Shown piece after piece: positions 261-16,543 of a stretch of 18,152 bases of DNA. How positions within the stretch are numbered: position 1 is the stretch's first letter; every line of letters begins with the position of its first letter. A model generated the notes under the pieces. The model was not told the origin of the DNA. It ran no database searches and saw only the letters and a program-made list of their open reading frames with translations. Source of the stretch: Bdellovibrionia bacterium (GTDB lineage Bacteria > Bdellovibrionota > UBA1018); the NCBI GenBank assembly GCA_045805065.1, contig JBJMMA010000025.1, positions 1 through 18,152 of the forward strand. Reading direction: 5' to 3'. A program made the translations under genes and the position numbers.

Positions 261-571
261 AAGCAAATCGAAAGGGGTGAATTTGACATCCATTTCGTTG
301 CACGAACCCCATGCACGAATGATTGGCGAAGAATGCAATGCTCAACCTGCTCTGCTGCGCTGAGAAAACAACATAGCAAGGCGCGCTAGCTCGGTGCTCA
401 GACCAATTCCCCTTTGAAACCTGCTTTTCAGTGTCGCAATCTGCGCCAAATTCCCGAAAACGAGCCGCAGGTACGTCGCTTGCTTTGGTCCCAACAGCAT
501 GCGGCCTGAGTTGTTTGAAAAAGCCGCGTACTTGGATTTGTTTACAAATTCGTCAAAGGAGGACGACACAC

Positions 572-1003
572 ATGCTACGGAAAGCACTGCTTGGAACTGC
601 AATGATGGCTCTCATTTCTTCTGTCGCTATGGCAGACATTCTGCCTCCAGTGAACTACGCTGGTCAGAAGGCTGGCACCTATGCTGGCCAGAAGGCTGGA
701 CAAAAGGCTGGTCAGAAGGCCGGTCAGAAGGCCGGTCAGAAGGCCGGTCAAAAGGCTGGTCAGAAGGCTGGACAAAAGGCTGGACAAAAGGCTGGCCAGA
801 AGGCTGGACAAAAAGCTGGCCAGAAGGCTGGTCAGTTTGCAGCTCAGAAGGCTGGCCAGAAGGCCGGTCAGAAAGCTGGACAAAAGGCTGGCCAGAAGGC
901 TGGACAAAAAGCTGGCCAGAAGGCCGGTCAGTCCGCTGGTCAGAAAGCTGGCCAGAAGTCTGGCGTCAGCTACAGCAACGGCAGCGGCAGCACCGGCTAC
1001 TAA
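572..1003 (+). CDS. Exported AGQK tetrapeptide-repeat protein (143 aa), putative precursor or structural peptide
   Basis: Strong RBS AAGGAGG at 556-562 before ATG 572; the ORF-track start at 431 is unlikely. Sec-type signal MLRKALLGTAMMALISSVAMA, then DILPPVNY, 25 tetrapeptide units and tail SGVSYSNGSGSTGY. Variation among the AGQK units is at third codon positions in this frame. Confidence 0.9.
   Translation: MLRKALLGTAMMALISSVAMADILPPVNYAGQKAGTYAGQKAGQKAGQKAGQKAGQKAGQKAGQKAGQKAGQKAGQKAGQKAGQKAGQFAAQKAGQKAGQKAGQKAGQKAGQKAGQKAGQSAGQKAGQKSGVSYSNGSGSTGY
659..958 (+). repeat. 12-bp coding tandem repeat x25 (GCY GGH CAR AAR = AGQK)
   Basis: 21 AGQK units plus the variants AGTY (671), AGQF (827), AAQK (839) and AGQS (923). 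Confidence 0.97.
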
Positions 1004-1028
1004 GCTCTAGCAGTCATCAGGCATTACA

Positions 1029-1072
1029 CGGGGAAGAATTTGCGAAAATCGCAGTTCTTCCCCGCTTTTTTT
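1029..1072 (+). terminator. Rho-independent terminator/stabilising hairpin after the repeat gene
   Basis: CGGGGAAGAA-TTTGCGA-AAA-TCGCAG-TTCTTCCCCG followed by CTTTTTTT. Confidence 0.85.
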
Positions 1073-1119
1073 AAATCTCTCTCTTACAATCCTCTTTTGG
1101 CCATTCGGAGCAAAGAACC

Positions 1120-1695
1120 ATGCAAACCCTTCGAATCGAGGCCCACCCGAGCGCTCCTCAAGCTTTGGCTCCCATCACGTTGCTTACGGGAACGGTACTC
1201 ACCATCTCCATTCTCTCAGGTTTTCAATCCACCCCGGTTCCTCATGAACTTGCCTGGCAGTTCTCACCGATCGGTTTTTTAACGAGCGCACTCAAAGGCG
1301 GACTGCCGGCAGAATACCTGGACCTTCCTACGGCGAATTACTTCCGCGGTCCCTCAGGCCTGAGCCTCGATTATGCGACGGTCTTTTTCAAAACCTGTTT
1401 TCTGGAAGCGCCTTTCTATGCCTGGTGTTTAAGGCGAGAAGGCTTCTTCAAAGCGGTGCAACTCATCCTCACCGCCAACTTCCTCACCCACCCGATCGTA
1501 TTTTTCGTGTTTCCGCTCTTATTCGCCCGCTACGTCCCGGCAGCTCTTTCAGCCGAAGTCTTTGCGGCCGGCGCTGAGATGCTCTTCATCGGGCTCTGGA
1601 TGAAAAACTCATATGGGGCGCGCACTGGCTGGATCTCGGCTTTCATCATCCTTTTTGCAAACCTTTTCTCATGGGAAGTGGGGATGTTTGTCTAA
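1120..1695 (+). CDS. Uncharacterised integral membrane protein with T-x3-E / AN-x2-THP / E-x6-E / AN-x2-S motifs
   Basis: 191-aa ORF with GGAG upstream and about 5 hydrophobic segments. Polar residues E96, N120, H124, E146, E153 and N181 lie in or at the edges of these segments. Its stop overlaps the next start (TAATG). Confidence 0.8.
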   Translation: MQTLRIEAHPSAPQALAPITLLTGTVLTISILSGFQSTPVPHELAWQFSPIGFLTSALKGGLPAEYLDLPTANYFRGPSGLSLDYATVFFKTCFLEAPFYAWCLRREGFFKAVQLILTANFLTHPIVFFVFPLLFARYVPAALSAEVFAAGAEMLFIGLWMKNSYGARTGWISAFIILFANLFSWEVGMFV

Positions 1696-2828
1696 TGACC
1701 TGGGCAATGATGGATTTATGCGCGGAATGCTTTGATTTCTTTCGCTCACGAATTCTTCGTCTCACCATGAAGTTCGAATGGGCGCGCCCGCTGTTCTACA
1801 ATCGCTCTTTGCGACTTGCGTTTTTGTTCCTGCTTTCCTGCACGACATCCCTGCCACTGGCTCTTTTTTTTCCGCTCTGGCTTCTGCTCTTCGGGCCTTT
1901 GGTTTATGGGGTTCCCCACATCGCTTCAAGTCTTCGCTATTTTCATCACTCGGCAAGAGCGGGAGAAAAAGATGACTCAAGAACGCGGACGCTCGCCTTT
2001 GTGGCCGCGGGAGTCATTTTGGTTGGCGTCTTTGTCCACAGACTTTTACTGACACAAAGCGTATTCAACATCTCGGTCCCGCAACTCAGCGAATGGAAAG
2101 GCTCGACTTACATCGACCTGATCGCCCTGAGCGTAACCTTTGCTTTAGGTGCTTGGATTTATCGCAAATCGCTCTCGCAGCTGATTGCAGGAACTCTCTT
2201 CATCACGCCACTCGCGGTCGCGTTCTGGTTCAAGCCCATGGAAACCATCGGAGCCATGGTCTTGATTCATAATTTCGTGGCTTTTGTGTATTGGATCCGC
2301 TCGACCCGAAGTCGATCCGAGAAAAGGGTCGCATGGTCCGCCTTTGCCATCACGCTGGGCGTCTCAGCCGCGATCTTTCTGGGGGTATTTGATCCACTTT
2401 ACTCCGCCTTTCATCATTTTGAGCCCAGGCTTGCGCTCACGGTTGCGCAACTGACCGCAGAGGACACGGGACGCCTCATCGCGCCCTGGTGGCAAGGCGC
2501 TGACTCGTTCTGGCTTCATGCCTGCAGCGTTTATGCTTTCGGTCAGGCACTCCACTACTTTGTCTGGCTCAAGGCGATCCCCGATCAATTCCACACTCAT
2601 GACGTACCCACCACGTTTCGTCAAAGTCTGAAGCTTTTGTCAGAAGACTTTGGCCGAACGGTAAGCATTGCACTGGTCCTGATCAGCGCCGGGTCGATCG
2701 TGATCTGGAGCTTCATGTCGCTTCAGGAGGCCAGGATGATTTATTTCTGCCTCGCAGGCTATCACGGGTATCTTGAAATCGCGGGGCTGGCACTCTCGCT
2801 TCGAGCACCAGCCCCGCGCTACCGCTAG
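1695..2828 (+). CDS. Uncharacterised polytopic membrane protein with four His motifs (putative non-heme metal enzyme)
   Basis: ATG 1695 overlaps the TAA of the previous gene. 377 aa, about 9-10 TM segments. Motifs GVPH(75)xxSSLRY, H(192)N, QALH(287)Y-xxWL and YH(357)GYLE. Confidence 0.8.
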   Translation: MTWAMMDLCAECFDFFRSRILRLTMKFEWARPLFYNRSLRLAFLFLLSCTTSLPLALFFPLWLLLFGPLVYGVPHIASSLRYFHHSARAGEKDDSRTRTLAFVAAGVILVGVFVHRLLLTQSVFNISVPQLSEWKGSTYIDLIALSVTFALGAWIYRKSLSQLIAGTLFITPLAVAFWFKPMETIGAMVLIHNFVAFVYWIRSTRSRSEKRVAWSAFAITLGVSAAIFLGVFDPLYSAFHHFEPRLALTVAQLTAEDTGRLIAPWWQGADSFWLHACSVYAFGQALHYFVWLKAIPDQFHTHDVPTTFRQSLKLLSEDFGRTVSIALVLISAGSIVIWSFMSLQEARMIYFCLAGYHGYLEIAGLALSLRAPAPRYR

Positions 2829-2856
2829 GATCACAACAGCGCTTGCGGATATGGCT

Positions 2857-3708
2857 TTATTCGGTCAAAGGAACCAACACACCACACGCCACACCGAGCG
2901 TTTGTTGAGGCGTCATGCCCGATACATCGCTTGCCGCAGTATTTGGAAGAAGCGTTGTTGGGGAGACACCGTGAATTTCCACAACGCGACCACTGAGAGC
3001 AAGGTTTGCCGAGCCCGCCGATCCTGAGGCGGTAGGACTTATGGTGGGACTTACACTGGGAGTTGCAGCAACTCCCGCTTGAGGCGATGCAGTTCCAGGA
3101 GCTGGGAGACTGCTGAGAAATGCGGATGATCCGCCGTTGATATAGTTCAGTACGCCATCCGCGGCCGCGGTCGGAAAGACCATGCTTGCGGAGGCCTGTG
3201 GCGTGGCTGGAGCGATATCTCCTGAGAGGCTCAGCGGAATGATGGGAGGACCCGAAATCGCTTCAGCCTCAACCGCATCGACGACTCCATCTCCATTGAC
3301 ATCAGCGGAGATATTCGCGCAGGCCGTGCCCTGATGAATATGCATTTCATGCACCACGTCTGGAGCAAGATTTGAAGCCTGAACCATTGCTCCTATTCGG
3401 CCCTGGTCCACCACGACGGTCACTGTTCCTGTAGCACCGCTGCCGTTTGCGGGATTTAAGACTGCAGAGTAGACCTGACGAGTGGTAGAGCCCGTCGCTC
3501 CGCCTGCGCTCGCTGGACTTGGAGAAACAGTAGGAGAAGCGGTTGGAGATGCCCCTGGCGAAGCTTTCACGCCCGGAAGTCCTTCGGGTGCACCAACGCT
3601 TCCCCCTCCTGCCCCTGTTTGCGCAGATACTCCGATTGCAACGAAAGTTGCCGTACCCAGTGCCGCGACCAGTGTGGCGCGGAACTTTGTCTTCTCACTC
3701 ATCGACAT
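2857..3708 (-). CDS. Exported Cu/Zn-SOD-like/CHRD-like protein with DxNxDG loop and Ser/Pro/Thr-rich linkers
   Basis: RBS AAGGAG 9 nt before ATG 3708; signal-like N-terminus ending VSA-Q. Motifs L-x-P-x-N-x-SG-x-x-G, HEMHIH-x4-C, DVNGDG, LSGRVVEIHG and VACG. Confidence 0.7.
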   Translation of the reverse strand: MSMSEKTKFRATLVAALGTATFVAIGVSAQTGAGGGSVGAPEGLPGVKASPGASPTASPTVSPSPASAGGATGSTTRQVYSAVLNPANGSGATGTVTVVVDQGRIGAMVQASNLAPDVVHEMHIHQGTACANISADVNGDGVVDAVEAEAISGPPIIPLSLSGDIAPATPQASASMVFPTAAADGVLNYINGGSSAFLSSLPAPGTASPQAGVAATPSVSPTISPTASGSAGSANLALSGRVVEIHGVSPTTLLPNTAASDVSGMTPQQTLGVACGVLVPLTE

Positions 3709-3784
3709 AAAAATCTCTCCTTTGGGTTTGACTCGTTTCAATGCAAAGCGTGTGCGTTGTTTGGCCCAGAAGGAGAATTCTCGT

Positions 3785-5501: not shown

Positions 5502-6704
5502 TCAGGCTGCGTCCGACACAGTCCGCTGTTTGTCCCCTAGTTTGGGAAGACTCAGGACAAAACAGGTCTGCGGTATGTTTTCATCCAGATAGAGGCAGCC
5601 TCCATGCATCTCGGCAAGAGTCCGTGAGATCAGGAAGCCCACCCCGGCTCCCTGCTTTTTCTCGCGAATGACCCCGCTTTTGTTGCCCTTTCTAAAGTTC
5701 TCCCTGAGCGATTGAGGTACGCCAGGACCGTTATCAATGATCCGTACCTGAATCTCATCATCACGTTCCATGACCTCCAGGCGAATCCAGGGATCCTTTG
5801 TCCCGCGCAATGCCATCGCCGCGTTCCGAACCAGATTGGTGATGATCTGAAGAAAATGAATACGCACGCATTCAATCAGAATCTCTTCCAACTGAGCATA
5901 GTCCGGGATTTCCACACGAACGGATTGAACATACTCTCGAGTCATTGCCAGTGCGTCATCCAAAAGCGCACGAACACTCAATCGTTCGTACGGCTCTTTG
6001 ACAGAGCCTTTGAACATCGAAAGCATTCCATTGACGATTGATATGACCTGATCGACAGTCTCTTCGATCTGTCTGCATGATTCGATCAGGCTTTGCGAGT
6101 TGAACTTTCCCAAAGTCAGTGCATGCCGTATCAACCCTGCTCTTGTCATGATCACGCTGAGAGGATTTTTGATTTCATGACTGACAAACCCCGTCCATTC
6201 AGCGAAAGCAGCTCTTCTTTCCTGCTCCAGGAGCCGCCCTCTCAGTTCATTGACACGCTCCGAGAGAACACGCTTGGTCGTGATGTTTTGATGAATGACC
6301 GCCACGTAGGCAGCTCCGTCGAATTCGCACCGTATCAGCCAGACTGAAAACCAGCGTTTCTCCAAAGGCGAATGACAAGGATATTCGAGCTGACTGAAGC
6401 TGGAGGAGCCAGTCGACGTATTATCCTGGAACATCGAGATGATTCGCGAGCGCAGCACGCCGGCTTCCCAGACATGCTCTTTCTCCGCTCGTTCGCAGAC
6501 GCCAAGATAATTCGCGCCGATATCCGTTTTGCCGGCCGATCCTTCATTCTCGACTGAGAACCGCTTCCACGCTTTGTTGGTCCATACGATCTGCCCGCTC
6601 GAATTCAAAACAGCAACATGCTCGGGCATGTTATTCAGCACCCGACCCAGGACCAGGCCGCCTTGCTCTTTCTCAAAAAGCGTGGAAAAAATGGAAGCGC
6701 TCAC
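5502..6704 (-). CDS. Cytoplasmic PAS-domain sensor histidine kinase
   Basis: PAS (AVLNSSGQIVWTN-AW...LEYPCHSP-EKRWF), H-box SHEIKNPL, N-box NLVRNA, G1 DNGPGV and G2 GAGVGF. No TM segment. GTG start uncertain. Confidence 0.92.
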   Translation of the reverse strand: MSASIFSTLFEKEQGGLVLGRVLNNMPEHVAVLNSSGQIVWTNKAWKRFSVENEGSAGKTDIGANYLGVCERAEKEHVWEAGVLRSRIISMFQDNTSTGSSSFSQLEYPCHSPLEKRWFSVWLIRCEFDGAAYVAVIHQNITTKRVLSERVNELRGRLLEQERRAAFAEWTGFVSHEIKNPLSVIMTRAGLIRHALTLGKFNSQSLIESCRQIEETVDQVISIVNGMLSMFKGSVKEPYERLSVRALLDDALAMTREYVQSVRVEIPDYAQLEEILIECVRIHFLQIITNLVRNAAMALRGTKDPWIRLEVMERDDEIQVRIIDNGPGVPQSLRENFRKGNKSGVIREKKQGAGVGFLISRTLAEMHGGCLYLDENIPQTCFVLSLPKLGDKQRTVSDAA

Positions 6705-6725
6705 ACCTCAAATGAGATGCAATCT

Positions 6726-7568
6726 TTATTCGACCTTGCTGAGGACGCTGGAAACGATCGGCGCCTCGACCAGAACCAAAGCTTTGTCGGCACCCACGTG
6801 GCCCACGTGCTTGTTCTGAGGAAGGTAGTAGGTTCTGAAGACCTGGTCCCAGATGCTCAAGACTTTGCCATAGTTTTGCTGCGAGGTTTCGATGTTCACC
6901 GAGTGATGCCAGCGATGCAACTGAGCCGTGTTGAAAACGCGATTCAACCAACCGGCATCAAAATCAATATTGGCATGCTCCAAAAGCCCTGTTGCCGCGT
7001 TCATTGAAAAAACGAGCGCGAAGACCTCGGTTGGAGCGCCCAGAATTGCCAGCGGCATGAAATAAAGAACGAAGTTCAAAAGAAGGTCAAACGGGTGGAA
7101 TCTGGCGGCATTCATCCAGTACACACGGCGCGGAGTATGGTGCGTTCGATGACACTTCCAGAGCGCTTCAGTCTCGTGCCCCAGCCGATGGGTCCAGTAA
7201 AAGAAAAACTCACTCATGACCAACGCCAAGACCAGTTGCACAAGGATTGGCGCCTGTTTTGGCCAGATCGAAAACAATCCATCGCCAAACCCGTGTTTGA
7301 GTAGAAAAGAAACACCTTCCACCAGAACCGGAAAGACAAGGTTGGTCAAAAGAAGATCTGACCAGAAGTCATGATCCATTCGGTTCCAGCTTTTCCGGTA
7401 AGGCATGAGCTGCTCCAGTACCATGACGATCACAACTCCCGGAATGATCACACCCGAGGCAAGAAGCGTTGGATGCAAGGACGGATACGCACGAATCAGA
7501 GTGAGATGCCCGATCAATGCCAGAAAGACAAACGCTGGATAAAAAGCATTTCGAAACACGTCTCTCAT
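6726..7568 (-). CDS. Sterol desaturase / fatty acid hydroxylase superfamily membrane di-iron enzyme
   Basis: His boxes YWTHRLGH, HRTHH, FHPFD, HAN and HRWHH, plus NYG-x2-SIWD. Overlaps the upstream gene by ATGA. Confidence 0.93.
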   Translation of the reverse strand: MRDVFRNAFYPAFVFLALIGHLTLIRAYPSLHPTLLASGVIIPGVVIVMVLEQLMPYRKSWNRMDHDFWSDLLLTNLVFPVLVEGVSFLLKHGFGDGLFSIWPKQAPILVQLVLALVMSEFFFYWTHRLGHETEALWKCHRTHHTPRRVYWMNAARFHPFDLLLNFVLYFMPLAILGAPTEVFALVFSMNAATGLLEHANIDFDAGWLNRVFNTAQLHRWHHSVNIETSQQNYGKVLSIWDQVFRTYYLPQNKHVGHVGADKALVLVEAPIVSSVLSKVE

Positions 7569-8965
7569 TGCATCGTCTCCACTTGCTCAAGCACCGTCTG
7601 ATATAAAGCCTGATAAGCGTTGACCCGGGTCTTTCGGTCAGAAAGATCGAAAGAACCTACCGTTCCGTCCGTCAGCATGTGGGTGCCATTGAAGACAATG
7701 ACAGAATGGTAAGGCGAGACATCATTCGGGAGCGTATTTCCTGGATACTCAATAAAGCCATCGTTTGCTCCCACGGAAAGGTGAAGAGCACGATCCAGGT
7801 TCTGAAAAGTGCGCATGGTTGCCGCATCGTTGGCAATCAGGCCGTTGCCTGGCACCACACCGACTACTTCCAGATAAACGGCATCTGATGGGAGACCTGT
7901 GATGAATTGTGAGCGGACCTGCGAAAGATGCTCCACGGAGATGCTAGGGAGCGCGCGCTCGTACTCCCCCGCTTCTTCAAGCTTAGGGATCGGCATTTTT
8001 CTCAAAATCCGGCCAAGCGTCCGCGTGCCATGAAGGGAACCTGCGAACTCAGAGAAAAACGTTCCCCTGAACATCCCTGAAAGATTGATCACAGCGACAA
8101 TACGACCATATCCCGCTGGGCGACTCTTCTGGGTGCGCTCGGAATCCAGATAGGATGAGAGCACTTGAGAGGTGGCTGCAAGCATTTCGGTGCTCCCCTT
8201 GCACAAGCCAAATAAGATAATATCCCCGCCTGCGCGAAGCTGCGTCTCAATTTGCGGCACCAGCAGCGCTACGTTTTCCTCATAAGTTCCCAAAGGCGGT
8301 CTTCTGAGAATTGTCGTTTCGATTCCGGTCTGCTGAATCTCAGTCACGAAGTTTTTGACGTAGTCAGGAGTGGACGCCTTGATGTCCTGATCCCAGCCCA
8401 GGCCCATGACCACCAGCGCACGCAGACCGCGCTCTCTTTTTGAAGGTCTAGCCGAGTGAATGGAGGAAAGAGTCTTCAAATAGCGCGCTCTGAAAGCCGC
8501 ATTGGCAGGCTGACTTTCAATCCAGGCCTGGTAGACTTCACCTGCAAACCCTTTTCCATATCTTTTAGATAATTCGCGATTGGTCTCGAGCGTGAATTCC
8601 CGGATCGGATGGTGAGCCAGATAGGTCGCGCCATCGGGTTCTTCGTGATAAACGTTTCCCCCCTGCTTGACTTGCTCCAATCGTTGCAGGATTTCTGAAT
8701 CATTCCCCCAGCGCAGGGTTTGCTGGGGTGCCCCTATCCCCTCCATCCAGCGCTCGCACGACATCGGTATCGCCGAAGAATGAATCTTCCGGGCATAGGA
8801 ATCTTTTAGATTCCACTGATAGAGCACGGTCTTGTTCCCCGTCGACACGCAACGAGGCATGCCCCCCTCATCCACAGTCCACTGGGCTGCAGAACAAGTT
8901 GCAGCAGGAACTACGCAGAGGAAGATATTCAGCGCTAAAATGAAAGAGCGTCGACGGGCCCACAT
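7565..8965 (-). CDS. Exported alpha/beta-hydrolase-fold protein with Cys nucleophile elbow (GLCKG)
   Basis: Signal-like N-terminus; oxyanion-like VVMGLGWD; ILFGLCKGSTE; late NDG and GTH motifs, giving a putative triad C255-D402-H429. Confidence 0.7.
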   Translation of the reverse strand: MWARRRSFILALNIFLCVVPAATCSAAQWTVDEGGMPRCVSTGNKTVLYQWNLKDSYARKIHSSAIPMSCERWMEGIGAPQQTLRWGNDSEILQRLEQVKQGGNVYHEEPDGATYLAHHPIREFTLETNRELSKRYGKGFAGEVYQAWIESQPANAAFRARYLKTLSSIHSARPSKRERGLRALVVMGLGWDQDIKASTPDYVKNFVTEIQQTGIETTILRRPPLGTYEENVALLVPQIETQLRAGGDIILFGLCKGSTEMLAATSQVLSSYLDSERTQKSRPAGYGRIVAVINLSGMFRGTFFSEFAGSLHGTRTLGRILRKMPIPKLEEAGEYERALPSISVEHLSQVRSQFITGLPSDAVYLEVVGVVPGNGLIANDAATMRTFQNLDRALHLSVGANDGFIEYPGNTLPNDVSPYHSVIVFNGTHMLTDGTVGSFDLSDRKTRVNAYQALYQTVLEQVETMQ

Positions 8966-12534: not shown

Positions 12535-12975
12535 TTACATCGGATGACTGATCGAATGGCAGGTCAGCTCGGCAGAGGTCGTGCCGGTATCGGTTGGAAG
12601 AATGAGAGTCGCGTTCATGGATTCAGGAGAATCTTCCATGTTCACGTCCGCGCTGTAAACCAACCGGAAATTCTCTCCATTCGTTTCGGTGTCAGTAAAG
12701 ATCTGGCTGACTCCTTGTGACGTCAGCGTGACGGTAGGAATCGTCAGAATCACCTTCTTGCCTGCAATCGACGATTCAGAAACTTCGGCCGAGTAATGCG
12801 GCATAAGACCGCCGTAGGAGATCTCAACATTCACGCCCGCATCCGCCAGGTTAGGATTTGAGCAACGGAGCGTCAGGTACATTTCATCTGGATTGCCATC
12901 GCGGACCACAGCGAAAGCAGGAGCCTGAGCCAATACAGCCAAAGCAGAAGCCAGAACAAGAATCGTTTTTTTCAT
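12535..12975 (-). CDS. Secreted hypothetical protein (146 aa, two Cys)
   Basis: RBS GAGGA; signal MKKTILVLASALAVLAQAPAFA; beta-rich; Cys in LRC and ELTC. Confidence 0.8.
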   Translation of the reverse strand: MKKTILVLASALAVLAQAPAFAVVRDGNPDEMYLTLRCSNPNLADAGVNVEISYGGLMPHYSAEVSESSIAGKKVILTIPTVTLTSQGVSQIFTDTETNGENFRLVYSADVNMEDSPESMNATLILPTDTGTTSAELTCHSISHPM

Positions 12976-13093
12976 GAGTTCCTCGTTTCAATGATCAACA
13001 CCGTTCAACTTGATCACTTTTTAGCCGTCTAGGCGAAAGATGGAAAGCAATTTACTGCTCGGTTTCGCGATAATGCTCAGCATCAGGACCAAT

Positions 13094-13516
13094 TCAGTCT
13101 TTAATTGAGCAGCTGAGGTCACGCTCTTCGCCTTCAAAAGCAACCGTCACATCCGTAACCTGGCCATCCTTCTTTTCGATAGCAAAAACACCACCGCTGT
13201 TTTCGCCAAACAGGTAGACAAGCTGACCTGGACGCACGGTCGAGTGAGCGCTGATCGGTGCGCCATTGATCAGGTCATTCTGGTCCAAAGTAAGGACAAG
13301 TCCCACTCCGTCACGAGACTTCATCTGAAGGGTTAATCCCCTCTCTGAGGCCGTGAAGTTTGCGAAGCAATGGGTGCCTTGAACTCGATACTCAGAGCCA
13401 GACAGAAAGTCGCGAGCCTGGGACAGAAAACTCACGCTGCTGTTTTCAGAAGCATAAGCCTGGGATCCAGAAACAACGGCGGAAATGGCAGCAAAGATAA
13501 CGAAGAGTTGGGTCAT
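13094..13516 (-). CDS. Secreted hypothetical protein (140 aa, two Cys)
   Basis: GAGAGG before ATG 13516; signal ending QAYA; Cys in THC and DLSC. Confidence 0.75.
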   Translation of the reverse strand: MTQLFVIFAAISAVVSGSQAYASENSSVSFLSQARDFLSGSEYRVQGTHCFANFTASERGLTLQMKSRDGVGLVLTLDQNDLINGAPISAHSTVRPGQLVYLFGENSGGVFAIEKKDGQVTDVTVAFEGEERDLSCSIKD

Positions 13517-13646
13517 ATAGCCTCTCAATTGCTTAAAGATTTGCGGGTCTTTTACAATGGCAGGCTAACGAGGTCCATTCTTTAATATTTGTGTAGTTAG
13601 AGCTGGAGAACGCACACGCTAAGCTCTTGAATTCATTCAAGTCGCT

Positions 13647-15824
13647 TTACGGATTCACGGTTCCGCCGTAAGGCGAAGTTCCCGTCGCCACCGACAGCGT
13701 GCCTCCGCCTTTTGTGACCGTGTTGCCATTCAAGCTCAGCGCATGCAGGGTCAGGTTATAGCCCGACATATTGATCGATCCGCTCGTAACGGTAGTCGTT
13801 TGCGTGGATCCGTTCCAGATCACGTTGGATGCGAGCGTGATGCCGCTTGGGTTGTTCACCGTAATGACTCCGCTTGGAAAGGTCCCACCGCTTTGTGTGA
13901 CGCTTTGTGCGCTGGATCCATTGAATGTCATAGCCGCGGTGCCGCCGTATATTTCCGTAATCGTCACATTACCGGCCACTGCCAGCGTTCCTCCATCAAT
14001 GAGGTGAAAGGTATTAAAGGTTAAATTTCCACCGATGTTAAATGTCCCGCTTACGGTCTCATGCAGGTAAGTGCAGCTCTTGCTGACGAACTGAACATTG
14101 TTATACGTCGCGGAGCCCGGCGAGATTGTGAGAGGGATACAATCTGAATTGAACATCAGAGTTGATCCCGTCGTCACTAGATTTCCCGACGTGTAAGTAA
14201 AACTTCGCCCAAAATAAATGGAGCCTGATAATGTGACATTATTCGCTCCCGCTGCGATGGTGACGTTAGGAAGGTTCGCTGACGACGAACCATTGCCCGA
14301 AATCGTCTGGCCAGCGGCATTTCCTGCGACAACGATCGTTGCTGATCCAGAATAGACGTAGTTGCCTGTGACGATGTCTCCATAGGCATTGATTGTTCCG
14401 CCATTGATGTAGTTCTGCCCGTTAAACGTGAGAGTTCCGCCCACATTCAATGTTCCAGAGATGTTAGCAGTGGGTCCATTGGCACCTTGGGTGAATTGAA
14501 CATGGTTAAGCATCGCGCTTCCGGCAGAGATCGTTTTTGATCCATTGGCAGCGTTAAAGATGAACGTTGATCCTGTTGCCGTAAATGTACCGACGGTCGT
14601 CACCGTGAAGTTACTGTTGTAGAGGTTGACCGTACCGCTGAAGGTCACAGGATTTGACCCCGTATCAATCACCAGATCCGCCCGCAGACTCGACGTCGGA
14701 TCTCCGGTGACGGTCTGTCCTGAAGCGTTTCCTACCAGCTTGATCGTCATGCCGGATGACTGCCCGTAGCTTGAACTCGGCATATTGAGATTGCCTGAGA
14801 GAAGAATCGTTCCGTTCGAAAGCTTTCCGTATCCGGGACCCGATACATTAGCGAGAGTGAGATCCCCTGCAATGGTCATCGAGCCACCGCCCAGGTCATT
14901 GTTCGTTTCCGATCCGCTGAATTTCACATTTTTATAAGTCACGCTTCCTGGAATGATGGAAGTCACAGTTGACCAAGGCTGATTGAATTGAAGCATTCCG
15001 CCATTGTGCGCAAACGTAGGTGATCCACTCACCTTGAAAAGCGTGCCATTGACCTGCCACGTTCCAGAAGTCGCTGTGTAAGCTCCACCCAGAAGTGCCC
15101 AGCTTCCGTTGTCGGTAATCGCATCGCCGCTGCTGCTTCCAGCAAAGGATCCTGCGGATTGAATCCAGCCCGATGATCCAATCGTCAGAGTCACACCGCT
15201 GTTTTGAGTGATCGTGCCTGAGTAAGTTGAGTCCATTCTCACTCCGCCCACGCTCATGTTCGCAGTGATATTGGGTGAGCAATTGGATGAGCAGGTTCCG
15301 TTGAAAATGGCGACGTTAGATGCCCCCGGAGCTGCACCCCCCGACCAGTTTGCAGCCGTGCTCCAGTTGGCATTCCCCCCTCCTCCGGTCCAGACAAAAG
15401 GATTGGTTGAGATCGTCTCGCTCTGGGACACGCTCTTATAAGCAGTTGCTGAAGCTGTGATCGGCAAGGTCCCCGTCGCGCCCGCGACAAAGTAAAAGCT
15501 TGAGTTATTGGTCCCTGAACTTACCGTGATGGACGTCACTGCCGAAGTGCAATCCGGGTCCGAGTAGAAAGTCAGGTTGGTTCCTGCGAGATTGACCGTG
15601 AGGGTTGAACTCACATTCGTTGCGACACCCAGGTAATTCAAAGTCTGAATCGTGGCTGTGCCCGAGCAGTTCGACTGATAGATCGATTGCGCCGAAGTCG
15701 TGAACTTCAACTTGCCCAGATGAGAAGCCCAAAAAGCAATCGTAGGCACCGTGGCGTGCGCTTGCTGGCACGCCGTCACGCCGAGAAACAAAAGCAATAA
15801 GGGTTGAACTCTATCATTCCTCAA
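13647..15824 (-). CDS. Large exported Gly/Thr/Asn/Ser-rich beta-helix (adhesin/passenger-like) protein
   Basis: Probable TTG start at 15824 after GGGAGAGG; signal or lipobox region LLLLFLGVTAC-QQAHA. Ig-like N-terminal part, WTGGGGNANWSTAANW cap motif and ~135-143-aa internal repeats; no C-terminal beta-barrel. Confidence 0.8.
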   Translation of the reverse strand: MRNDRVQPLLLLFLGVTACQQAHATVPTIAFWASHLGKLKFTTSAQSIYQSNCSGTATIQTLNYLGVATNVSSTLTVNLAGTNLTFYSDPDCTSAVTSITVSSGTNNSSFYFVAGATGTLPITASATAYKSVSQSETISTNPFVWTGGGGNANWSTAANWSGGAAPGASNVAIFNGTCSSNCSPNITANMSVGGVRMDSTYSGTITQNSGVTLTIGSSGWIQSAGSFAGSSSGDAITDNGSWALLGGAYTATSGTWQVNGTLFKVSGSPTFAHNGGMLQFNQPWSTVTSIIPGSVTYKNVKFSGSETNNDLGGGSMTIAGDLTLANVSGPGYGKLSNGTILLSGNLNMPSSSYGQSSGMTIKLVGNASGQTVTGDPTSSLRADLVIDTGSNPVTFSGTVNLYNSNFTVTTVGTFTATGSTFIFNAANGSKTISAGSAMLNHVQFTQGANGPTANISGTLNVGGTLTFNGQNYINGGTINAYGDIVTGNYVYSGSATIVVAGNAAGQTISGNGSSSANLPNVTIAAGANNVTLSGSIYFGRSFTYTSGNLVTTGSTLMFNSDCIPLTISPGSATYNNVQFVSKSCTYLHETVSGTFNIGGNLTFNTFHLIDGGTLAVAGNVTITEIYGGTAAMTFNGSSAQSVTQSGGTFPSGVITVNNPSGITLASNVIWNGSTQTTTVTSGSINMSGYNLTLHALSLNGNTVTKGGGTLSVATGTSPYGGTVNP

Positions 15825-15879
15825 GAGACCTCTCCCGCTTACGTACAACAAGGAATTCAGGCAGTTTGCCTTATTAGAA

Positions 15880-15908
15880 ATCTTACTAATTCTATAACAT
15901 TTGTTCAA
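15880..15908 (-). promoter_or_regulatory. Putative sigma70 promoter for the beta-helix gene
   Basis: TTGAAC-N17-TAAGAT lies inside the ORF-track 5' extension, which supports the later start. Confidence 0.5.
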
Positions 15909-15927
15909 CTGTGTCTGCGATGACCTC

Positions 15928-15970
15928 AAAAAACAAAAAAGCCCGGCCTGAACTGAATCAAGCCGGGCTT
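15928..15970 (-). terminator. Rho-independent terminator of the 16004-16543 gene
   Basis: Minus strand AAGCCCGGC-TTGATTCAGTTCAG-GCCGGGC-TTTTTTGTTTTTT. Confidence 0.85.
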
Positions 15971-16003: not shown

Positions 16004-16543
16004 TTATTGATAGAACATGTAGATGTTCGGCAGATTGACCGGAGTACCGTCTGGAAGCGTTCCTGTGACAATCATGGCCCGGATCATCCCAAAGTCATTG
16101 TATGCGCCATTCGGAGCGACCTGAGGTTGATGGTAATAAAACTGCTCATTGAGAAGAGAGGATTGGCCGTTCTGGTTCATTACGCGGATACTGCGAACAT
16201 AGACATCACTGTTTTGGGCGTATCCGGTTGTTCTGTAGAGAAACTTCCAGACCGTCAGGCCCGTGATTCTCAAGAAGTAGACCTGACCGCTCATCTGGAC
16301 TCTCACATATCCTTCAGGATGCGGATCTTTCGCAGGGCGTGGCATCTCTCCAAAGCAAAGCGCTGGATTGAATGGCTGCGTCTGAGTCGTTGCGCAATAC
16401 TCATGGGTTCCAGCTGGAGGAAGCGGCGTCGTGCTCAAATGCCAGAGGACAAGATCCGTCTGGGGAGGAGGCGTATCGGCAAACGCCAGAGAGCTCGAAA
16501 AAGCCAAACCTAAAACCGATAGAATCAATCCAAACTTCTTCAT
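16004..16543 (-). CDS. Secreted hypothetical protein (179 aa)
   Basis: Signal MKKFGLILSVLGLAFSSSLAFA-D; Pro-rich start; Cys pair; followed by a terminator. Confidence 0.8.
   Translation of the reverse strand: MKKFGLILSVLGLAFSSSLAFADTPPPQTDLVLWHLSTTPLPPAGTHEYCATTQTQPFNPALCFGEMPRPAKDPHPEGYVRVQMSGQVYFLRITGLTVWKFLYRTTGYAQNSDVYVRSIRVMNQNGQSSLLNEQFYYHQPQVAPNGAYNDFGMIRAMIVTGTLPDGTPVNLPNIYMFYQ

Follow-up and report, generated by a model that had tools for sequence, protein, structure and literature searches.

We describe here three adjacent genes on an 18,152-nt stretch of DNA from a Bdellovibrionia bacterium (positions 1 to 18,152 of contig JBJMMA010000025.1, assembly GCA_045805065.1; hereafter, the window) and propose that they represent one copy of a conserved and undescribed module of the cell envelope. 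The genes, all on the forward strand, encode an exported protein of 143 aa (open reading frame (ORF) 1; 572..1003), a 191-aa membrane protein (ORF2; 1120..1695) and a 377-aa membrane protein of ten predicted helices (ORF3; 1695..2828). In the reading that we favor, and to which we would assign a probability of roughly 40%, the mature exported protein opens with an aspartate tag that ORF2, often together with ORF3, would capture or modify.

What is conserved in the exported partner is the start of its mature part: a signal peptide ends in A-x-A and is followed by Asp, a hydrophobic residue and Pro. Our survey covered 35 loci, namely the matches to an ORF3 profile in contigs from one genome per species, in which the ORFs were read by eye. 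A signal-peptide ORF with such a tag (mature start D-[ILFVA] with Pro near; L035 without the Pro) was present at 19 of the 35, and all 19 fall among the 20 loci that also bear ORF2, the twentieth (L038) being cut upstream; at ORF3 loci of this set without an adjacent ORF2, no tagged ORF was found. The neighborhood check thereby bore out the link between an exported protein and the membrane pair that an earlier note on this DNA, made from the sequence alone, had drawn: a small signal-peptide ORF stands at 19/35 ORF3 loci and at 19/20 of those with ORF2. Besides DILPPVNY in the window (635..658; Asp at +1, a hydrophobic residue at +2, Pro at +4 and +5), which recurs in kind beside ORF2 and ORF3 homologs at many loci, the predicted mature starts read DFLPPVNS (L008), DFLPPPQH (L009), DIPNKN (L027), DLATPN (L012), DILPGP (L017), DLVLPH (L018), DIPLPH (L019), DIPQPL (L020), DIVLAP (L021), DIGPRP (L022), DAIAPL (L024), DVILPT (L028), DIAPRP (L039) and, without Pro, DLVDGK (L035). 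In L036/L037 the tagged gene (DIPLPPVV) lies two genes upstream, and in L025 (DIINPQ) and L030 (DLLPVQ) the tag heads a large protein encoded 3' of ORF3-ORF2. Two further triads start with DIPPPSGF (L088) and DIVIPPQF (L093).

We also applied one regular expression uniformly, asking for a start like that of a signal peptide, the pattern small-x-small, D and a hydrophobic residue, with Pro no more than four positions on. It matched 13 times in 0.278 Mb of loci, each time just upstream of ORF3 and on the same strand; the window's complete genome (4.22 Mb) gave 14 matches, most of them doubtful ORFs. Moreover, some loci have ORF2 but no ORF3 within flanks of about 1.5 kb; there, a tagged ORF lies just upstream in L090 (DITPSPGE), L092 (DIPPPHGS), L095 (DVPPPPGS), L102 (DGIPVPME) and L076 (DIPPPQDY), the last from Myxococcota. 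Every tagged protein that we observed has Asp at +1. Judged from these neighborhoods, the tag goes with ORF2 rather than with ORF3, and the window's own module holds a tagged exported ORF beside a gene of the ORF2 family, the arrangement by which we define the module. That the tag might be a genome-wide sorting signal was considered and rejected, the window's own genome showing it only on ORF1 and on a few doubtful or unlinked ORFs. One unlinked protein of that genome, of 679-690 aa (G000:C56:6381-8420, minus strand, which equals L152 582-2654, minus strand), has a signal peptide followed by ADFLNPAN and is possibly a second tagged protein.

The two membrane proteins form a pair of their own. 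In a search with an ORF2 hidden Markov model (HMM), 20 of the 35 ORF3 loci had an adjacent ORF2 on the same strand, which precedes ORF3 in L007-L009 and follows it in the remaining 17; three more loci gave weak ORF2 HMM matches, two of them on the opposite strand. The pairing therefore outlives a change of gene order between the window's kin and the other loci. Among 301 Bdellovibrionota genomes, drawn evenly as a single sample, 27 have ORF2 and 18 have ORF3; 15 genomes hold both, adjacent in 15/15, leaving three with ORF3 only (one at a contig end) and 12 with ORF2 only. ORF2-like genes with weaker scores were found in 43 of 251 Myxococcota genomes, and seven of 30 fetched loci had an ORF3-like neighbor; in four of five Myxococcota genomes with ORF3 but no adjacent ORF2, an ORF2-like gene lies elsewhere. 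No other conserved neighbor genes were seen around the ORF2/ORF3 loci.

The bodies behind the tag are unrelated between loci, and the tag is constant. One family of 60-90 residues combines the motif TIxGxxA with a C-terminal Cys...Cys hairpin (2-Cys mini-domain), and in its alignment (A4) A(-1), D(+1), one Gly, one Ala and two Cys are invariant in 12/12 sequences; the alphaproteobacterial loci L017, L022 and L039 carry the 2-Cys domain behind a Pro-rich linker. At the other extreme of size, the Bdellovibrio-type locus L025 encodes, downstream of ORF3-ORF2 (5563-7767, plus strand), a tagged protein of 734 aa that is Gly/Tyr-rich and then runs into a Glu/Lys-rich segment; it had no Pfam or NCBIfam match, and a similar large protein stands likewise 3' of ORF3-ORF2 in L030 (5605-6559, plus strand), also of Bdellovibrio type. 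The mini-proteins of the Myxococcota loci L133, L141 and L146 (DIPPP, DLPPRP and DVAPGG, respectively) consist of a signal peptide, the tag, a few residues, a transmembrane (TM) helix and an Arg-rich tail, and are essentially free of cargo. Family searches with the partner proteins (15 + 13 sequences) gave no match.

In the window itself, the body is a repeat. ORF1 is preceded by the strong Shine-Dalgarno sequence AAGGAGG (556..562), which ends 9 nt 5' of its ATG, and its N-terminus (MLRK, ALLGTAMMALISSV, AMA) follows the n/h/c order typical of Sec signal peptides; cleavage would follow the A-M-A that ends the 21 residues encoded by 572..634, with A(-1) invariant in alignment A4. The predicted mature part of 122 aa consists of DILPPVNY, 25 four-residue units of AGQK type (659..958; 21 of them perfect) and the Gly/Ser/Tyr tail SGVSYSNGSGSTGY (959..1000), to which the tails in L007 and L008 are similar. 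Its composition, with 22 Lys, 24 Gln, four Tyr, one Asp and neither Glu nor Arg, agrees exactly with that given in the earlier note, and the Shine-Dalgarno sequence, signal peptide and repeat were confirmed as well. Tandem Repeats Finder reported a period of 12, 25.4 copies and a score of 307; because the 21 perfect units are encoded by eight different DNA versions, the repeat period is held at the protein level. Orthologs of ORF1 occupy the same position, always upstream of ORF2-ORF3, in L007 (same genus), L008 and L009, and the polycationic AGQK-type body is lineage-specific, restricted to the window and these close kin, with 21 GQK units in the window, 13 in L007, 17 in L008 and four in L009. 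Of the earlier expectation that a linked short ORF with tandem repeats would recur, the secreted ORF thus stood and the repeat did not. No match to ORF1 was found in Pfam or NCBIfam at E<=1 or in PADLOC at E<=0.1, and a full-text literature search for the AGQK repeat and the Asp-hydrophobic-Pro tag found nothing on either.

Several observations touch on the repeat. Soil metagenome contigs (runs X2 and X5) span parts of positions 645-982 but omit 85-253 nt, in some cases with different letters in their place, which suggests that related strains vary in repeat length or sequence, or that other organisms have genes akin to this one. Two small metagenome proteins with signal peptides, P0211 and P0215, carry AGQKAGQA and TGQKAGQK repeats without the Asp tag. 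A His/Asp-rich stretch stands behind the signal peptide in P0211 (HDQNGDHRGDH) and in L009 (QHDHNG).

ORF2 belongs to a family of 295 relatives, all unnamed. E96, Y100, N120, T123-H124-P125, P132, E146, A149, E153, N181-L182, S184-W185 and G188 are invariant in 18/18 sequences, and ORF2 and ORF3 of the window carry every invariant column of their respective alignments (A2 and A1). The AlphaFold2 model (predicted local distance difference test score, pLDDT, 81.8) shows one N-terminal helix and a four-helix core that holds the invariant residues. From the modeled helix limits and the positive-inside rule, on which the topology of ORF3 was also based, the N-terminal TM helix probably leads to a periplasmic segment, and the core probably starts from the periplasm, with the Arg/Lys-rich loops 1-2 and 3-4 in the cytoplasm. 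The segment before the core differs between subgroups: an extra TM helix leads out in the window's kin, and two invariant Cys are found in the shorter forms. In the short type (alignment A3), the two N-terminal Cys are kept in 12/12 sequences and the tagged partners (A4) likewise have two Cys in 12/12; in the window's kin, Cys is absent from the tagged protein (4/4) and from the aligned ORF2 segment (4/4). This parallel may hint at a periplasmic contact between ORF2 and its tagged partner, and it is a hint only because it is confounded by relatedness. In the distant ORF2-like group of L096, L097 and L101 (about 115-120 aa), the TM helix and a (L)TPxGL segment, which are fused into ORF2 in the window, form a separate upstream gene.

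ORF3 has 78 close relatives, down to 31% identity, and its profile matched 1169 representative clusters at E<=0.001, 402 of them at E<=1e-30. An alignment of 32 sequences has 20 invariant columns, including H75, H192-N193, Q284, H287-Y288, H357-G358 and E361. Its AlphaFold2 model (pLDDT 90.2) consists of ten long helices and an N-terminal amphipathic helix, and the protein is probably N-in/C-in with ten TM helices and with the conserved loops in the periplasm. The four invariant His (H75, H192, H287 and H357) would lie mid-membrane in helices 2, 6, 8 and 10, at a distance of 11-12 residues from the cytoplasmic end of each helix in the model, and therefore all at one depth. No sign of internal duplication was found when the N-terminal half was aligned to the C-terminal half (hhalign probability 0.25%). 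In L039 (3869-5542), from an alphaproteobacterial metagenome-assembled genome, the ORF3 homolog is split over two frames, one long frame continuing into ORF2, by either a frameshift or an assembly error.

Neither family could be tied to a named one. ORF2 and 18 family members had no match in Pfam, NCBIfam or PADLOC, and the same was true of ORF3 and 14 relatives, including longer ones (P0087, P0093 and others) whose extensions contain no Pfam domain; the thresholds for the window's proteins were E<=1 for Pfam and NCBIfam and E<=0.1 for PADLOC. The comparison of AlphaFold models with Foldseek that had been suggested beforehand gave confident models and no convincing match among solved structures. 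For ORF2, Foldseek returned no match and the best of the wide VIA search (1y2m_A, Z 6.8, root mean square deviation (rmsd) 3.7, 105 aligned) is a generic helical bundle; for ORF3, Foldseek gave none at E<=0.001 and the best wide VIA match was 7kc4_B (Z 5.0, rmsd 6.0, 185 aligned). Sequence and profile searches of the PDB with the module proteins found nothing meaningful. In the ESM Atlas, ORF3 met unnamed clusters only, and the third match in the feature search for ORF2 was a cluster automatically named 'CAAX protease self-immunity' (score 0.81), which we take as a weak lead only. These results agree with two statements of the earlier note, that none of the three genes belongs to a recognizable family (the Pfam, NCBIfam, PADLOC and solved-structure searches were all without match), and that the membrane proteins bear Glu/Asn/His and four-His motifs, respectively, which proved invariant in 18/18 ORF2 and 32/32 ORF3 sequences.

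ORF2 begins 116 nt downstream of ORF1. When 1001-1080 was folded, positions 1029-1064 formed a long, G+C-rich hairpin with a run of seven T behind it at 1066-1072 (free energy -26.4 kcal/mol, z = -4.9, 0/200 shuffles as stable), which resembles an intrinsic terminator (1029..1072) and upholds the earlier claim that ORF1 has a hairpin terminator of its own, though a simple consensus scan for terminators over 300-3000 found none and missed this hairpin. Hairpins stand at the matching place in the three orthologous loci L007-L009, with weaker statistics in two. A promoter scan over 300-3000, the ORF1-ORF2 spacer included, found no promoter-like site. The translational coupling of ORF2 and ORF3 by TAATG, also claimed earlier, is visible as the overlap of the ORF2 stop and the ORF3 start at 1693-1697; an alternative in-frame ATG for ORF3 lies at 1671, and ORF2 is overlapped from either start. 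The seemingly conserved peptide MGSGDV ahead of the start in several ORF3 homologs arises from reading the conserved 3' end of ORF2 in another frame. Judging from this layout, the hairpin behind ORF1 would give much tagged protein and little ORF2 and ORF3.

How might such a module work? Its constant parts would be an exported protein that starts with Asp, a hydrophobic residue and at least one Pro within the next four residues, and an ORF2 whose N-terminal segment lies in the periplasm, ahead of a bundle of four helices whose invariant intramembrane residues would be Glu, Asn, Thr-His-Pro, Glu, Glu and Asn-Leu-x-Ser-Trp; ORF3, with ten helices and four His at about the same depth, would be a part in most cases and not in all. 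We propose that ORF1 is exported by Sec and cut by ordinary signal peptidase behind A-x-A, which would expose a new N-terminal Asp, that this N-terminus is then taken up by ORF2, with ORF3 as a catalytic or metal-holding partner, and that the Asp end is finally modified or merely held so that the remainder of the protein is kept at the outer surface of the inner membrane. The polycationic (AGQK)n chain of about 100 residues would be a lineage-specific cargo or spacer and not the element that the machinery recognizes. An invariant +1 residue, a hydrophobic/Pro stretch, an exchangeable body and a membrane pair encoded in cis with ionizable residues inside the membrane together make the pattern one of tag-directed processing or docking, as known from lipoproteins and exosortase-type systems, and not one of enzymes that act on a repeat. 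A more definite version, in which a new protein-tagging pathway of the envelope would have the Asp covalently modified or anchored by a machine of 4-TM Glu/His and 10-TM four-His (perhaps metal-binding) subunits, with AGQK as one of several interchangeable cargoes and with the whole an N-terminal analog, free of Cys, to the lipoprotein or exosortase pathways, in Bdellovibrionota, Myxococcota and some Alphaproteobacteria, is in our view doubtful but conceivable.

A number of points weigh against our proposal. As no search found similarity to an enzyme, a transporter or a solved fold, what argues for capture or modification is gene association and the invariant polar residues. Sixteen of the 35 ORF3 loci, for the most part loci from Myxococcota and a few from Bacteriovoracaceae at which adjacent ORF2 is missing too, have no neighboring tag; ORF3 can therefore work without the tag. 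In Myxococcota, only three of seven loci with ORF3 and ORF2 have a plausible tagged ORF, and the four negatives persisted after extra upstream DNA had been added. Moreover, A-x-A followed by D is a common signal-peptidase context, the related genomes are not independent samples, and the search for tags was partly done by eye, the strict scan recovering 13 of the 19. The exported neighbors of the distant ORF2-like group (L096, L097 and L101) start with N-D-G-G-[IV]-A. A single soil metatranscriptome contig (run X9) covers 2855-3000, which belongs to the adjacent minus-strand gene, and none lies over ORF1-3.

Among the other explanations, we rank highest a transport or metal complex, in which ORF3 would be a permease or metal site, ORF2 its small subunit, and the exported Asp N-terminus would deliver or gate a cation. 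Transporters with a small and a large membrane subunit and a periplasmic partner are well known (TRAP DctPQM, CopC-CopD, and CbiM/NikM, in which an N-terminus is inserted), and the exported, 4-TM and 10-TM layout fits them, as do the four invariant His at one depth with polar neighbors and the His/Asp-rich stretches of L009 and P0211. However, the body of the periplasmic partner is unconserved and may be a bare repeat or a tether of about 30 residues, the tag tracks ORF2 and not the His-bearing ORF3, the Pro behind Asp-hydrophobic adds no metal ligands, and no transporter family or fold was matched, so that we regard this explanation as unlikely. A dedicated signal peptidase is harder to credit: here ORF2 would be an intramembrane (glutamic) peptidase that cuts between A and D as LspA cuts its substrates, with ORF3 acting before or after it. 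The small 4-TM core of ORF2, with three invariant intramembrane Glu besides His and Asn, would suit such a role, A(-1) and D(+1) are invariant across the cleavage site, and lspA and lgt of relatives are likewise adjacent genes for a small and a larger membrane protein; yet the sites look like ordinary signal-peptidase-I sites (small residues at -3 and -1), and hhalign gave 0.1% for ORF2 against LspA and 1% for ORF3 against Lgt.

With 22 Lys and a single acidic residue in its mature part, ORF1 could also be a cationic antimicrobial aimed at prey or competitors, from which ORF2 and ORF3 would protect the producer in the manner of CPBP/Abi proteins. The layout of a strongly expressed small gene with membrane genes, the Bacteriovoracaceae-like lineage and the Atlas cluster mentioned above (0.81, a lead only) would agree with this. 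Most tagged partners, however, are neither cationic nor peptide-like, a constant mature N-terminus ahead of a variable body is unlike bacteriocins, hhalign of ORF2 against CPBP stayed below 1% and PF02517 missed ORF2 at E<=10; we consider self-immunity of this kind as improbable as the peptidase. Still further down we place the proposal of the earlier note, that the membrane enzymes oxidize (Lys/Tyr), cross-link (Gln-Lys) or cut the AGQK repeat as in ribosomally synthesized and post-translationally modified peptides (RiPPs). The order of precursor, terminator and downstream genes and the abundance of Gln and Lys had spoken for it, but the repeat is missing from most homologous modules, and the invariant residues of ORF2 and ORF3 are identical beside repeat partners and beside 2-Cys partners. 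Because the repeat is confined to close kin and the other bodies are unrelated, sharing only D-hydrophobic-x-P, Gln, Lys and Tyr cannot be the recognition target of the conserved membrane proteins; the conservation of core residues among homologous clusters that would mark a RiPP was not seen. Nor did Pfam and NCBIfam reveal a known RiPP enzyme class, transglutaminase or peptidase domain in the window's ORFs, and the chemistry once proposed is thus unsupported and very improbable; a metal chelator, antimicrobial or adhesive polymer as its product is speculation about the cargo. Least credible of all is the absence of any functional link, with ORF1 an independent gene that happens to lie upstream, as the terminator-like hairpin between ORF1 and ORF2 might suggest; L007, L008 and L009 preserve the arrangement, tagged ORFs adjoin ORF3 or ORF2 in many distant genomes, and the promoter scan of 300-3000 showed no promoter-like site in the spacer before ORF2.

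By every test we ran, the module is far from any described system. The closest parallel in outline is lipoprotein maturation (lipobox, Lgt, LspA), which shares a short motif where the signal peptide meets the mature part, an invariant +1 residue, unrelated bodies, and a small 4-TM protein with a larger polytopic one. Here, however, the +1 residue is Asp and not Cys, the lipobox is absent, and there is usually one substrate encoded in cis as against many throughout the genome. Identity with LspA and Lgt was rejected on the hhalign probabilities (0.1% for ORF2-LspA, 1.0% for ORF3-Lgt, and 100% for LspA against itself as a control). Canonical lspA and lgt are present elsewhere in the window's own genome (G000), on different contigs and with two copies of lgt. 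In many relatives (G014, G009, G008, G003 and others; L153-L202), lspA and lgt are adjacent, as at 6993-7418 and 7462-8199 of G014:C7.

Exosortase/PEP-CTERM, rhombosortase/GlyGly-CTERM and archaeosortase systems combine a short C-terminal tag that includes a TM helix, a variable exported body and a paired polytopic protein. Our module resembles them in its short tag, variable body and a genetically paired polytopic protein with catalytic-looking invariant residues, and differs in that the tag is the mature N-terminus and that their family models in Pfam and NCBIfam were unmatched. CPBP/Rce1-like proteins and the Abi immunity proteins (PF02517) are likewise small and polytopic with intramembrane Glu, His and Asn, but their EExxxR, FxxxH and HxxxN motifs are missing in ORF2, which has only one invariant His. 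A CPBP identity was rejected: PF02517 searched against the whole genome at E<=10 matched three other places and not ORF2, hmmscan of 18 ORF2 members found no PF02517 at E<=5, and the ORF2 profile (A2) aligned to 26 CPBP sequences from relatives with a probability below 1%. The Rce1-like fold 4cad_L came at Foldseek rank 33 with E 1.4 and a TM-score of 0.20, and was not in the top 50 of the wide VIA search.

Beta-carotene dioxygenases of the Brp/Blh family (PF15461) are polytopic with several invariant His in their helices (five in eight aligned Blh), as is ORF3, but their His pattern (HG..D, HF, HxxxH) is a different one. This candidate was rejected, as Pfam gave no match at E<=1 and hhalign of the ORF3 profile (A1) with eight Blh sequences gave 0.3%; no carotenoid or rhodopsin genes were found among the window's ORFs. 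The MBOAT enzymes HHAT and GOAT are polytopic proteins with an intramembrane His that recognize the first residues of a secreted protein after its signal peptide has been removed. Unlike them, ORF3 has no MBOAT match in Pfam, and no MBOAT chain stands among the fold matches listed, though this need not speak against such a fold. Bufferins, which are signal-peptide RiPPs made with MNIO enzymes, are small exported precursors encoded beside processing genes. The module shares a small exported protein beside putative processing genes; in contrast to bufferins, neither MNIO/DUF692 nor a partner gene was found by Pfam and NCBIfam in the window, and the conserved element is an N-terminal tag and not a modified core.

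Around the module, the window holds a convergent gene (2857-3741, minus strand) for an exported, Ala/Ser/Pro-rich protein of 294 aa with weak matches to CHRD (E 0.018) and dockerin (E 0.03). Further minus-strand ORFs of 466, 146, 144, 760 and 179 aa without Pfam match lie at 7565-8965, 12535-13528, 13647-15929 and 16004-16543, and the 466-aa ORF adjoins a gene of the fatty-acid-hydroxylase family at 6726-7568.

If our proposal is correct, the ORF3 family with its 1169 representative clusters, the 295 relatives of ORF2 and the tagged proteins would gain a common context, and a single invariant Asp at the mature N-terminus would offer a sharp handle on them. It would add an N-terminal route to the known ways of envelope sorting (lipoproteins, sortases, exosortases and rhombosortases) and might provide a portable tag for display at the surface of the inner membrane. 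In this organism, it would also account for the production of a strongly expressed polycationic repeat protein alongside two membrane proteins. Were the module instead a transporter whose periplasmic subunit is unusual, the rule that the tag accompanies ORF2 would still be a useful key to annotation.

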